Of a DNA stretch of 64,000 nt, positions 8,569 through 14,803 are shown piece after piece. The stretch is from a virus: the IMG/VR virus record IMGVR_UViG_3300019927_000044, positions 3,331-67,330 of that record. One strand, given 5' to 3'. The position numbers and the translations under genes are program-made. Under the pieces are notes generated by a model, which searched no databases, was not told where the DNA came from, and saw only the letters and a list, made by a program, of their open reading frames with translations. Within the stretch, counting starts at the first letter, position 1, and each line of letters opens with the position of its first letter.

Positions 8569-9171
8569 CTATTCGTCGTCTTCATCATCGTCGTCAGTAG
8601 GGTTCCCAGCTTCGCTGCCATTGCCAGTCTCCTGCTGAGTTTCGGTATCCGACGAAGGTTCGTCCGCCGTACTTTCCTCGTCGTTTGAGGTAGCAGAGTC
8701 GCGCTCTGCGGAGTCGTCTTCTGACGACTCAACACTACCGATGTCGTCTCGAATCTGCTCGATGGTACGTTCACCGACGCCCTTCGCGTCCATCAGTTCC
8801 TCGTCAGTTGCGAGGTAGACTTCTGTCGGCGTGCTGATATCGTGATTCTGTCTGAGGCGCTTGGCGTAGGTCGGTCCGATACCAGTGATTGCCGTCGTAC
8901 CATCGTATTCACTGAGGTAGTCTGGTAGCTGTGGTTCGTCACCCGCAGCTTCTTCGTCAGTATCGCCCTCACTATCAGTAGCATCGTTGTCAGCCACAGC
9001 CGCCGTATCCGTATCAGCAGCCGTCTGGTCGCCGCCGAAGGTAACGTCGTCGTTCCCGTCGTCGTCAACGTCGACGCTTGCTTCATTGCCGCTGAAGTAC
9101 GCGTACGCAGCCGCAGAGATGGTTGTAAGTGCAATGCCGCCAGCCGCCACGAATTCAGGTGGAACATTCAT
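8569..9171 (-). CDS. Membrane-anchored helix-hairpin-helix protein
   Basis: N-terminal hydrophobic helix; ITGIGPTYA and AKGVGERTI HhH motifs between acidic linkers. Confidence 0.75.
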   Translation of the reverse strand: MNVPPEFVAAGGIALTTISAAAYAYFSGNEASVDVDDDGNDDVTFGGDQTAADTDTAAVADNDATDSEGDTDEEAAGDEPQLPDYLSEYDGTTAITGIGPTYAKRLRQNHDISTPTEVYLATDEELMDAKGVGERTIEQIRDDIGSVESSEDDSAERDSATSNDEESTADEPSSDTETQQETGNGSEAGNPTDDDDEDDE

Positions 9172-10274: not shown

Positions 10275-10892
10275 TTAGATGCCGTAATGTTCGATTGCAC
10301 CCTCCTTCGTTCGGTACAGATGGATACCACTGGTACAGCGCGCAGTCACGTCATCATCAAACTCGTTTTCGGGCTGAATCAGGTCACCAAGCTCGTACTC
10401 GAAATCATTGTCATGACGTGACACATCTTCGAACACACCAGACGCATTTTCGGCGTCACTCATGAATTCTCGCTCTTTATCAGCAAACTCGTCTGGGTCG
10501 TACATGTCTGCGACGAAGGCCATGTTTGTTCGCAGCTTTTTTCGACCAAATGCGCTGTGGCGTGGATACACGACCTTGGCCGTGGGAGGAAGGAGTAGCT
10601 TGACGATAGCATTGCGAGTTGCCTTCCACGCAACACGTTCTTCCTCAAGGCGGACTACTTCACCGTCTTTCCCTTCAAGTTCGGCAACGGCATCAGTCTC
10701 GATATTGAAGCGGTTGTACATCGCCTCTGCAAACTCCTCGAACTTGTTTTCAATACGCTCAGCCTTCCGCTGTGCGTTGTCAGCAACGTTTGCAGCACGT
10801 CGCGCATCTTCCTGTGCTGTTTCTAACTCGTCTTCAAGTGCTTCGATTCGGTCTTCGTTCTCAACTGTCGAACCGCCAAGTAGGATTCCCAT
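10275..10892 (-). CDS. Coiled-coil + DUF5758-like protein
   Basis: IVKLLLPPTAK...KLRT...FEYELGD...FDDDVTARCTSGIHLY pattern. Confidence 0.65.
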   Translation of the reverse strand: MGILLGGSTVENEDRIEALEDELETAQEDARRAANVADNAQRKAERIENKFEEFAEAMYNRFNIETDAVAELEGKDGEVVRLEEERVAWKATRNAIVKLLLPPTAKVVYPRHSAFGRKKLRTNMAFVADMYDPDEFADKEREFMSDAENASGVFEDVSRHDNDFEYELGDLIQPENEFDDDVTARCTSGIHLYRTKEGAIEHYGI

Positions 10893-10944
10893 GTGCGTTT
10901 CATTATAAAGTCTTTATTGTAATAAGTGTTTTCATTCACGTTCA

Positions 10945-11362
10945 AAAAAAAACGGTCGGATAGCCCGTTACCGCCACACTTTGTGGTGATACGATACCTG
11001 TTTCAATGTGGCCTACTGGCACGGAGGCAGTCGACCAAATGTCGAACTCATCCATATCATTGAGCCGCGATTATATGCGGCAATCTAACAGGCTGGTGTC
11101 CATTTAATCCATACTTCGCCACAGTTCACCCAACAGTTACCTTTAGGGCGATGCCCTATTCGGCATCGTCCTATCGGCTCGTGCGATAGTACGATACTTT
11201 GCCGTGCATAGGGTATACACCGTTTCACGAGGTCAGTTGTGTAGCGCGCATGGAACCACTTTTCATTTCGGTATCTTAATTTGGTTTATGCTTGTTTTGC
11301 GTCGGTGGAAGGGGCATATCAACCCACCATCCGTGTCAGGGGTAGTTCGACCACCGACATAC
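10945..11362 (-). ncRNA. Putative structured ncRNA A (~410 nt)
   Basis: No long ORF; TATA-like element at 11381-90 and T9 run at 10944-52 on the - strand; multiple helices. Confidence 0.6.
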
Positions 11363-11399
11363 TATGTTAGGAACCCCGTGTATAAAAAAGTTTCGAAAA

Positions 11400-11676
11400 T
11401 AAATGGAAGAGGGCTGCATGATTACCGCACCCACAGCCGTTAGTTAAAGGCTTTTCCTATCTCATATCCCTTACCGTAAGTGTCTACATGACGTTTCACC
11501 GTCATCCCCGACAATCTTACAAGGGCTATAATTCGGTCTACCATACTGTTGTGAGCCATGACCTCCCTACAGCGTTAATCAGCTATGGTCATGCGGCCTC
11601 CAAGCGGACAGCCTACCGCTCTCATCGCAAGATGCTTAGTTGTATGCACTAACTTCCTCTCGTGTGAGAGGCATGT
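11400..11676 (-). ncRNA. Putative structured ncRNA B (~275 nt)
   Basis: No long ORF; TATTAAGTA about 21 nt upstream; nested helices with G-U pairs on the - strand; T-rich end. Confidence 0.6.
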
Positions 11677-11712
11677 AGTAGTACACAACCCAGCTACTTA
11701 ATACTTGTGAAA

Positions 11713-11979
11713 CTATTCCATTTTCTCCATCCCATCAACGCTAATTGAGATACTATCATCTCGACGTTGCCGACCAAGTTCAAACTGCTCACTCGCCGTA
11801 TGACCGACCAGTTCCGCCGTCAGACCGTCGCCAACGTCAAAGACGATGCATACCACCTTCGTCAGTCCAAGGCTCTTCATCTCCGTCTCAACGACTGTCA
11901 GCGGCTCTGGCACTTCGTCAGTATCGAACTGTACAACATCTCCTTCCTGTAGGTTTTCGGGCCTCATTCGTCGTAGCAC
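11713..11979 (-). CDS. Hypothetical protein
   Basis: Acidic ORF; true start probably MRPENL. Confidence 0.6.
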   Translation of the reverse strand: MLRRMRPENLQEGDVVQFDTDEVPEPLTVVETEMKSLGLTKVVCIVFDVGDGLTAELVGHTASEQFELGRQRRDDSISISVDGMEKME

Positions 11980-12239
11980 TCCGTATGCATGTCAGACTTC
12001 CAGTCGTACTTATGCCAGTGGTTAGACAGATTTGAGTTGAGTATGATGTCTTTCAGCACTGTCTGACAGCGTGGGCACAGCGTCTTTGCGTAGTCCGCCG
12101 TCCAGAGTCCGTCTTTCCTAACCGTCGACTGCGAGTCGGCGTTTGGCAACTCTGTGACGCGACCGTACAGCCAGACGCCACCATGAATACCGTACTCATC
12201 CTTCACGTCACTGCCACAACCGACACAACGAATTGTCAC
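11964..12239 (-). CDS. Small Zn-finger protein
   Basis: CVGCG...CPRC. Confidence 0.65.
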   Translation of the reverse strand: MTIRCVGCGSDVKDEYGIHGGVWLYGRVTELPNADSQSTVRKDGLWTADYAKTLCPRCQTVLKDIILNSNLSNHWHKYDWKSDMHTECYDE

Positions 12240-12571
12240 ATTCCAGCCTCCCGAACCGTTTCAAGTGCGTCTTCATACCGCTCTTCGTCTATTTTAATCA
12301 GCACGCGTAGCAATTCATACGTGCTGTATTCTAAGTCTTCATCTGTCGGGCCACTTTCTATATCGTAATTATCGACACAGTTTTCTATTCGCTCGACCAA
12401 CATGTCGGCAACCCAGTCGAGTGCTACAGCAGCACCGCCACTAACAATGTCTTGTTCAGACGGGGACGCACTGTCAAAATAGACCGCCTTACCAAGCGGT
12501 TTATCGTTTTCTTCATCTTTGACAGTTTCAACACCGTACGAGTCGATAACTTCGTACAATTTTCCGTTCAC
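12236..12571 (-). CDS. Hypothetical protein (111 aa)
   Basis: Acidic ORF. Confidence 0.65.
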   Translation of the reverse strand: MNGKLYEVIDSYGVETVKDEENDKPLGKAVYFDSASPSEQDIVSGGAAVALDWVADMLVERIENCVDNYDIESGPTDEDLEYSTYELLRVLIKIDEERYEDALETVREAGM

Positions 12572-14443: not shown

Positions 14444-14803
14444 CTATTCGCCCCGAGGAATGTCGTCAGTGTCAGGTTCTTCTGGCTCTTCGACAACTTC
14501 GTCTGGCTGCGACATGCCAGACTCTGCGGTGCCATTTTCAAATGGCACAACTTCAAGTTCCTGCAGGGCCGTCAGTCCAGCCTCAATCGGAATGATGAAC
14601 TCGATTGGGGCCATCAGGTCACGGGCGTCTTCACCCTTGACCAACTTCCCAACCACTTCATCGGGCTGGTCGTTAAGTCCAGCCACTTGCGCCAACTGTA
14701 GGGCCAGTTCTCGACTGACCGATTCTGGGTCGATAAGAATGCTTGTCTCCGCTCTATCCATTACGCTGTCGTCGCCAATAATGTCTGATGGGTAACGCGT
14801 CAT
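14444..14803 (-). CDS. Hypothetical acidic protein
   Basis: ORF with upstream TATA-like element. Confidence 0.6.
   Translation of the reverse strand: MTRYPSDIIGDDSVMDRAETSILIDPESVSRELALQLAQVAGLNDQPDEVVGKLVKGEDARDLMAPIEFIIPIEAGLTALQELEVVPFENGTAESGMSQPDEVVEEPEEPDTDDIPRGE

Follow-up and report, generated by a model that had tools for sequence, protein, structure and literature searches.

What does a virus keep in a stretch of its genome that holds no open reading frame? The question is raised by an ORF-free gap of 820 nt (positions 10893-11712) that lies between two minus-strand genes of the DNA analysed here, a stretch of 64,000 nucleotides that comprises nearly all of a 67,387-bp IMG/VR virus record and to which we refer as the window. 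A preliminary description of this DNA had proposed that the gap holds two structured RNAs in tandem, RNA A and RNA B. Here we ask whether RNA B is a unit in its own right, on which strand and in what shape it would act, and what the variation of this locus among related viruses says about its nature.

Results

A non-coding gap in a virus of haloarchaea

The source of the window is an uncultivated tailed virus of haloarchaea, because its large terminase is 47.6% identical to the homologue of Haloarcula tailed virus 2 (HATV-2) and the accompanying genes include those for an intein-bearing family B DNA polymerase, a helicase, HNH and GIY-YIG endonucleases and nucleotide metabolism. The RNA B region sits in a gap with the following surroundings:

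12571-11713, minus strand: operon of genes for 111, 91 and 88 amino acids, upstream of RNA B
11713-11979, minus strand: the 88-aa gene, last of this small operon and upstream flank of the gap
10275-10892, minus strand: DUF5758 gene, the other flank of the gap, beyond RNA A

Downstream of RNA B lie RNA A and then the DUF5758 gene. Pfam and PHROG scans of the neighbouring genes revealed no RNA-binding or RNA-processing protein.

Relatives were reached via the DUF5758 protein and contigs encoding it, and more distant ones via the DUF5758 and HD proteins. The close metagenome relatives comprise two contigs with RNA B, L003 (9.2 kb) and L004 (3.7 kb), and one with RNA A only, L005; since L003 and L004 are identical across RNA B, they amount to one divergent lineage with full-length sequence. 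In addition, Logan contigs from four hypersaline-lake runs (X1-X4) were aligned to the region. A blastn search with the gap (821 nt) against 50,697 phage records yielded no relatives, exact and degenerate DNA patterns of RNA B found no copies in viral, genome and metagenome contig collections, and locus searches with the flanking proteins or a DUF5758 alignment in viral, metagenome and genome collections brought no further relatives. The single match of the DUF5758 protein to the phage records by tblastn was a weak one to a Ralstonia phage, HATV-2, the nearest cultured relative by terminase, being absent from the matches. Gene-level mosaicism is seen near RNA B alongside patches of 97-100% identity, and the 111-aa gene (12236-12571, minus strand) lacks a counterpart in L003, where only 3 aligned positions are left.

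RNA B is part of a conserved unit without a coding frame

The preliminary description had assigned positions 11400-11676 (about 275 nt) to RNA B. The conserved unit is wider, extending on the minus strand from 11714 to about 11385 and comprising about 330 nt of protein-free sequence. Its upstream boundary falls at 11714, within the stop codon (11715-11713) of the 88-aa gene. Since contigs of runs X2 and X4 diverge from the window precisely at 11714/11715, the cassette, including the 38 nt before 11676, behaves as one unit. Its parts are as follows:

11677-11714, minus strand: conserved leader of 38 nt without any difference between the window, L003 and L004 (100% identity); TATA-like TATTAAGT at 11703-11696
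11601-11692, minus strand: 5' domain, with predicted hairpins at 11690-11637, 11634-11623 and 11620-11603
11439-11600, minus strand: core domain of about 162 nt, predicted to form a closed three-way junction
11404-11438, minus strand: 3' domain, starting with GGCUGUGGGUGCGGU
11384-11403, minus strand: T-rich end with T3, T4 and T6 runs, read from the sequence and identical in L003 and L004

Over the 330 positions shared by the window and L003 (11714-11385) the two sequences are 98.2% identical, compared with 86.6-92.6% in the flanking genes and 93.4% in RNA A. Because the genome is mosaic and has other patches that are 97-100% identical, part of this high identity may reflect recent recombination instead of selection.

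No coding frame is conserved on the sense strand, since each frame holds 5-13 stop codons and an insert of 55 nt, which is not a multiple of 3, is tolerated in L003 and L004. The opposite strand has one candidate:

11488-11652, plus strand: antisense ORF of 54 codons (76 codons from stop to stop), rejected as a gene

That this ORF encodes a small protein, with the RNA structure being incidental, we consider very improbable. Its frame is open both in the window and in L003, and when read in this frame the three substitutions found in the core amount to two silent changes and one N to D. However, the 55-nt insert (the module M1 described below) shifts the frame in L003, so that the last, C-terminal third of the product is unrelated there; the whole core is missing in other variants; no gene is called at this place on L003 or L004; the peptide is basic and His-rich, whereas the proteins of the virus are strongly acidic; and the ORF would run antisense to all the surrounding genes.

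The minus strand is predicted to fold into three domains

When folded as minus-strand RNA, positions 11400-11676 reach -90 kcal/mol (z -2.35; 3 of 200 shuffles did equally well), as compared with -76.1 kcal/mol (z -1.73) for the plus strand. In both energy and z-score the minus strand therefore folds better, in agreement with the earlier proposal that the G-U pairs favour it. The core alone folds at -51.3 kcal/mol on the minus strand (z -2.76, 2 of 200 shuffles as good) and has a z-score of -2.01 on the plus strand.

The 5' domain is predicted to consist of a long irregular hairpin at 11690-11637, with the tip CCUCUC-ACAC-GAGAGG at 11671-11656, followed by a small CAUC/GAUG hairpin (11634-11623) and by the AGCGG/CCGCU helix, which had been noted before and is recovered at 11620-11603. 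When folded from 11692 this domain has z-scores of -2.74 in the window and -2.87 in L003; folded from 11676, it reaches only -1.46 and -1.59, respectively.

Two branches emerge from the core. One is the long nested stem 11542-11449, which ends in the tip AUGACG-GUGAAA-CGUCAU at 11505-11488 and contains the proposed nested series CCCUU/AAGGG, GUAAG/CUUAC, UGUC/GACA and AUGACG-GUGAAA-CGUCAU (11525-11468); this series is present in every minimum-energy fold. The other is the local hairpin 11593-11557, in which CAUGACC/GGUCAUG had been suggested to enclose AUAGC/GCUGU. This hairpin forms when the core is folded alone and is displaced in the full-length fold, where a long-range helix of 16 bp, pairing 11597-11580 with 11439-11424, competes with it. 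GGCUGUGGGUGCGGU supplies most of the 3' strand of this helix (11439-11424), which would hold the 3' domain to the start of the core (11597-11580). As an alternative, the 3' domain could adopt the local GGCUG/CAGCC hairpin of the preliminary description, a helix that is possible and is favoured by no fold (z -1.0 for the hairpin alone). The suggested GUUAGU/ACUAAC pseudoknot does not hold up: L003, L004 and contigs of all four runs have GUGAGU, the partner is unchanged and there is no compensation.

Inspection by eye gave no convincing case of a kink-turn within the AUGACG stem, of a hammerhead-like CUGAUUA...GAAAC, of bulge-helix-bulge splice sites at the boundaries of the modules or of repeats of the CRISPR or CreA-like type.

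Substitutions tend to preserve the minus-strand pairs

In the consensus fold (RNAalifold) all six substitutions fall at positions predicted to be paired; one breaks its pair and five keep it via wobble (G-C/G.U twice, U-A/U.G, C-G/U.G and G.U/A-U). Because RNAalifold used both sequences, the count was repeated on the fold of the window alone, where on the minus strand 4 of 6 substitutions keep their pair (P = 0.005 by random placement of changes of the same type); the identical placement test on the plus strand gives P = 0.66. Collectively, the six changes stabilise the minus-strand fold by 5.9 kcal/mol, which 4.4% of random sets match, and shift that of the plus strand by 0.1 kcal/mol.

The three substitutions in the core all keep their pair (11530, U.G to C-G; 11502, A-U to G.U; 11451, G.U to A-U), and the U to C change at 11424 in the 3' domain turns a G.U pair with G11597 into G-C. 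At sites 11638 and 11651 of the 5' hairpin, the G-U and C.U of the window correspond to G-C and C-G in relatives. A covariation check within RNA B thus counts five one-sided wobble changes and no double change, all from a single divergent lineage, and we take the substitutions as modest but strand-specific evidence of an RNA fold in that one lineage. The earlier view of RNA B as a distinct, non-coding, structured unit of the minus strand is supported: no frame is kept, the 55-nt insert is tolerated, identity is 98.2% versus 87-93% and wobble-type preservation is found on the minus strand only.

Ends of the unit and the case for read-through

A TATA box separate from that of RNA A had been ascribed to RNA B. 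What precedes RNA B is only the TATA-like TATTAAGT (11703-11696) and not the canonical early box CTTTTTTATA, which is found about 27 nt before the starts of RNA A and of the genes starting at 14803 and 14397. The leader element TATTAAGT is a putative promoter of RNA B and predicts a start near 11676. Such a start conflicts with the 5' hairpin 11690-11637, which folds well only when the RNA begins further upstream. At the other end, the T-rich stretch reported directly upstream of RNA A is confirmed as runs of T3, T4 and T6 at 11403-11384, the T6 run doubling as part of the RNA A TATA box. Archaeal terminators are oligo-T, and these runs are the likely termination site of RNA B. The generic archaeal signals of an RNA gene at this locus are, accordingly, the conserved oligo-T runs and, upstream, only the TATA-like TATTAAGT without canonical CTTTTTTATA.

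Since the 5' hairpin needs a start upstream of 11676 and relatives improve its pairs, read-through from the operon would be a serious alternative to a promoter of RNA B's own. It is also conceivable that RNA B belongs to the operon of 111-, 91- and 88-aa genes (12571-11713) as its long, structured 3' untranslated region, possibly processed to a stable 3'-derived RNA, in which case the oligo-T runs at 11403-11384 would be the terminator of that operon. We regard this as unlikely. From the stop codon at 11713 down to 11399 there is no run of at least 4 T, the TATA-like box is weak in comparison with the canonical early box, good folding of the hairpin 11690-11637 requires an RNA that begins upstream of 11690, which fits read-through, and in the relative L007 a B-like 3' end passes into a tRNA-Val gene without a T run, which suggests co-transcription and processing. 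Conversely, the cassette has its boundary at precisely 11714, with other DNA upstream of it in other variants, which fits a unit with its own promoter; the 100% conservation of the 38 nt before 11676 likewise fits a unit that brings its promoter along.

RNA B varies by whole modules

In L003 and L004, alignments place two insertions in RNA B relative to the window:

11600/11601, minus strand: junction of 5' domain and core; 55-nt double-hairpin module M1
11438/11439, minus strand: junction of core and 3' domain; 57-nt double-hairpin module M2

Each module consists of GGUUGU, a 9-bp hairpin, a linker CCGCA(A/G)AG, a second hairpin and CGAGG. Between M1 and M2, 15 of 15 pairs are kept, 6 of them through double changes. 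In ViennaRNA folds both modules form independent hairpins and the remaining fold of RNA B is intact, so that their sites mark the two junctions of the three domains.

At least four structural forms occur among the sampled contigs, two of them within run X1. The window-like form without M is found in X1 record 2, and X3 record 10 and X4 record 14, which are shorter, resemble the window where they cover the region. The form with M modules is found in X2 record 7, which has about 50 extra letters at 11597-11600 and a loose end at 11432 that reads M2-type letters. In two further contigs other letters stand in place of the 163-nt core, 58 in X1 record 1 and 113 in X4 record 12; from the lengths and boundaries we infer that these replacements are one and two M modules, and the single-module form could have originated by recombination between M1 and M2. 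Because core-less variants exist, with two forms co-occurring in run X1, the core, which is the main folded domain, is dispensable in nature and not required for propagation, and RNA B is accessory.

Each module of RNA B, i.e. the 5' hairpin, M1, the core, M2 and the 3' domain, starts with GGYYGY (GGUUGU, GGCCGC or GGCUGU). In the window the motif stands at 11690, 11614, 11598 and 11438 on the minus strand, that is, 4 times in 330 nt versus an estimated 0.7-0.9 by chance, in a count made post hoc and by eye; it could drive slippage or recombination. RNA A is modular too: L005, the X2 contig, swaps 81 nt (window 11141-11221) for 24 other letters, and in X1 there are about 61 extra letters near 11332 in RNA A, including a copy of 11140-11179.

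The M module is dispersed over RNA B and protein genes

A covariance model built from M1 and M2 was used to search for further copies of the module. The copies are:

L003 2259-2326 and 2474-2543: within RNA B of L003
14491-14556 of the window, minus strand: inside a 119-aa ORF (E 1.6e-8)
L003 5522-5588 (corresponding to window 8673-8739, minus strand): inside an HHH_5 gene
L011 2142-2210: in an intergenic stretch of this distant relative

The module thus occurs in frame in two protein genes, once in an intergenic stretch and twice inside the RNA B of relatives; the RNA B of the window has no copy, and the window as a whole shows no enrichment of M-like linker motifs. The HHH_5 protein of L003 has 19 extra residues (57 nt) that overlap the 3' half of the M copy. 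Among four copies, 98% of cells pair, and 12 of 15 pairs show double changes, a result reached by 0 of 500 shuffles, in an alignment that was fitted by the model and thereby favours structure. The conserved linker CCGCAGAG is read in different frames among the copies, and its conservation is therefore at the nucleotide level. Hairpin spacers of 37 and 61 nt at gene ends were considered as relatives of M and are unrelated to it.

The nearest analogy to M is offered by the Rickettsia palindromic elements, which insert in frame into genes (PMC10969869). M resembles these elements and MITE-like insertions in that all are short hairpin elements, found in frame within genes as well as in non-coding DNA and variable in presence between strains (PMC10969869). 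It differs from the Rickettsia elements in length, about 57 nt versus about 150 nt, and in build, being two hairpins joined by the CCGCAGAG linker, whereas Rickettsia palindromic and MITE-like elements have terminal inverted repeats. Furthermore, and unlike in the Rickettsia elements, M copies differ by compensatory changes that keep the fold over the sequence, have no transposase link and reside in a virus of archaea.

The same observations invite a reading in which the stretch works as DNA or not at all, as a recombination-prone spacer of hairpin modules in a mosaic region, its identity reflecting recent exchange between viruses and its indels slippage across palindromes with GGYYGY direct repeats. 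The patches of 97-100% identity in nearby coding DNA, the number of structural forms (at least four, two of them in run X1), the GGYYGY motif at every module boundary and the presence of M within protein genes, where it behaves as selfish DNA, are all in line with this. We nevertheless rate it as distinctly improbable: strand-specific wobble substitutions are not expected of a DNA element, the G+C content of the RNA B region equals that of the surrounding DNA (47-50%) with no turn of the cumulative GC skew, and there are no iterons or tandem repeats.

The locus in distant relatives and the link to RNA A

At the site upstream of the DUF5758 gene, distant relatives carry tRNA genes or other ORF-free structured stretches:

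L006 8-85: tRNA-Arg
L007 151-391: tRNA-Val, tRNA-Leu and, by eye, a third tRNA-like T arm
L011 5230-5554: tRNA-Gln and, by eye, a possible intron-containing tRNA
L009 1-44: tRNA cut at its 5' end
L020 6503-7255: tRNA-Val and tRNA-Trp
L012 8369-9275: ORF-free structured stretch of 906 nt
L014 9024-9533: ORF-free structured stretch of 509 nt

L009 may be the other side of the L011 island, both coming from the same sequencing run. The islands often adjoin genes for RNA ligase (PF09414), RtcB or Acb5-like proteins; neither RNA ligase nor RtcB genes were found in the virus of the window, and ARAGORN detected no tRNA gene in the window. The islands of L012 and L020 have a short element in common, CCACC-R-AGGUGG..GGGAAACC. 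The assemblies of L005, L006, L009 and L010 break 80-400 nt upstream of the DUF5758 gene (80-125 nt in L006, L009 and L010), an effect that a polymorphic or repeated RNA island would cause.

Positions 1-47 of L007 resemble the last part of the core together with the first part of the 3' domain. Given three exact blocks at near-equal spacing (TAAGGGA, ACUAACGG and GUGGGUG), a B-like RNA appears to be present in this virus, whose DUF5758 protein is only 32% identical. The B-like 3' end of L007 is followed by tRNA-Val at 151, with tRNA genes in place of RNA A. A search with the core covariance model (R3) recovered only the copy of the window itself and none in eleven more distant related loci.

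Two RNAs in tandem might have been expected to act together, as had been suggested. In L003 (2619-2867) and L004 (979-1227), RNA B and RNA A are separated by an 82-aa gene that is assigned to no family and has a CTTTTTTATA promoter box of its own; it is missing from the window at about 11384, where the two boxes have fused into one. This intervening gene and the tRNA genes of L007 argue against an obligate pair, and in X1 record 1 RNA A is found on the same contig from which the 163-nt core of RNA B is missing. The idea of a joint action of RNA A and RNA B is therefore not supported.

Comparison with known kinds of RNA

The Rfam search that had been suggested for RNA B (Rfam 15, whole window, gathering thresholds) gave no match. 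At E-values up to 10, the only hit in 10700-11900 was a chance one to snoU61 (14.7 bits versus a gathering threshold of 55), inside the upstream coding gene. ARAGORN detected neither tRNA nor tmRNA in the window; the same tools detect tRNAs in L006, L007, L011, L020 and L009 (5'-cut). Archaeal RNase P RNA (RF00373) had no match in the whole virus record and was detected in the control, Haloferax volcanii. By eye, GCGAUGA (11627-11621) and CUGA (11582-11579) look like boxes C and D at about the right spacing, without C'/D' boxes or an Rfam C/D match, and in relatives M1 separates the two.

The 10800-11800 region has no tandem repeat (minimum score 30) of the kind expected of a ToxI-like RNA of type III toxin-antitoxin systems, and what follows downstream is RNA A and the DUF5758 gene. 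Comparing RNA B with the rest of the window for matches of at least 12 nt yielded one same-strand 12-mer and no antisense match, with 2-3 random 12-mers estimated; given that no extended complementarity to other parts of the genome exists, RNA B is unlikely to act as a trans-antisense RNA.

With the GOLLD (RF01998) and ROOL (RF03087) RNAs, examples of the large or medium-sized structured non-coding RNAs of phages and archaeal viruses, RNA B has in common that it is virus-borne and ORF-free, more conserved than its neighbours and folded in several domains, that it lies in or beside tRNA-gene islands and that it has no known partner. It differs from them in having no Rfam match, in being much smaller (about 290-330 nt), in having been found so far only in a narrow group of hypersaline-lake contigs and in its dispensable core. 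It also recalls the Y RNA/YrlA-Ro60 (Rsr) modules of bacteria and phages, being small, structured and located in a viral tRNA island that in relatives has RtcB or RNA ligase genes alongside. In contrast to these modules, RNA B belongs to a virus without TROVE/Ro60 (PF05731; none in six-frame searches of the 67-kb record), RtcB or RNA ligase, and it has neither a tRNA-like element nor an Rfam match to Y RNA or YrlA. RNase P RNA, tmRNA, group I introns and other structured RNAs are known to have expansion segments. Like these RNAs, RNA B gains and loses hairpin modules at the tips or junctions of helices around a core fold that persists; unlike them, it has lost its largest domain in some variants, and the inserted module is also found in protein genes. 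RNA B is best filed as a new member of the loose class of virus-borne structured RNAs that have no described function.

Discussion

In this study we have analysed a modular non-coding locus of a haloarchaeal virus. On balance, we consider it probable that RNA B is an accessory and self-contained cassette for a non-coding RNA, running from 11714 to about 11385 on the minus strand and acting as a folded RNA. The locus as a whole would be a hypervariable 'stable-RNA island' between the early operon and the DUF5758 gene. RNA B would be transcribed rightward on the minus strand together with the early genes, starting at a weak TATA-like box of its own or continuing from the operon as read-through, with transcription ending at the oligo-T runs. 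The transcript would fold into three domains, i.e. the 5' hairpins, the core with its three-way junction (162 nt) and a 3' strand clamping the first part of the core, and would act neither as an mRNA nor as an antisense regulator nor as a DNA site. The folded RNA might bind or titrate a protein of the host or the virus, one possibility being a decoy of some RNA-directed host factor or defence; such a role is our best guess, with no partner gene nearby. As core-less variants exist, RNA B would be dispensable to the virus.

A bolder and, as a whole, doubtful proposal would explain the entire island upstream of the DUF5758 gene as an exchangeable slot for RNA cargo, filled elsewhere with tRNAs and RNA-repair ligases and here with two novel folded RNAs. 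RNA B would then represent a new class of decoy or anti-defence RNA that titrates, for example, a host RNA-targeting defence or an RNA-binding factor, and its relatives would be undergoing invasion by a new selfish element, a double hairpin of 57 nt that enters protein genes in frame as well. If this were true, M would be the first element of the Rickettsia palindromic kind in an archaeal virus.

To our knowledge, archaeal viruses have so far yielded very few non-coding RNAs, none of them with an assigned function. If transcribed, RNA B would add a compact and testable example. What makes it tractable is the existence of natural core-less 'knock-outs' and of insertion variants that mark the domain junctions, together with the context of a tRNA island and the M element. 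The M module, in turn, shows that small palindromic elements conserved in fold can colonise both the RNA genes and the protein genes of an archaeal virus. Finally, the variants and the placement of RNA B at a locus of tRNA and RNA-repair genes suggest a family of exchangeable RNA cargo that may be tied to translation or to conflict with the host at the level of RNA.
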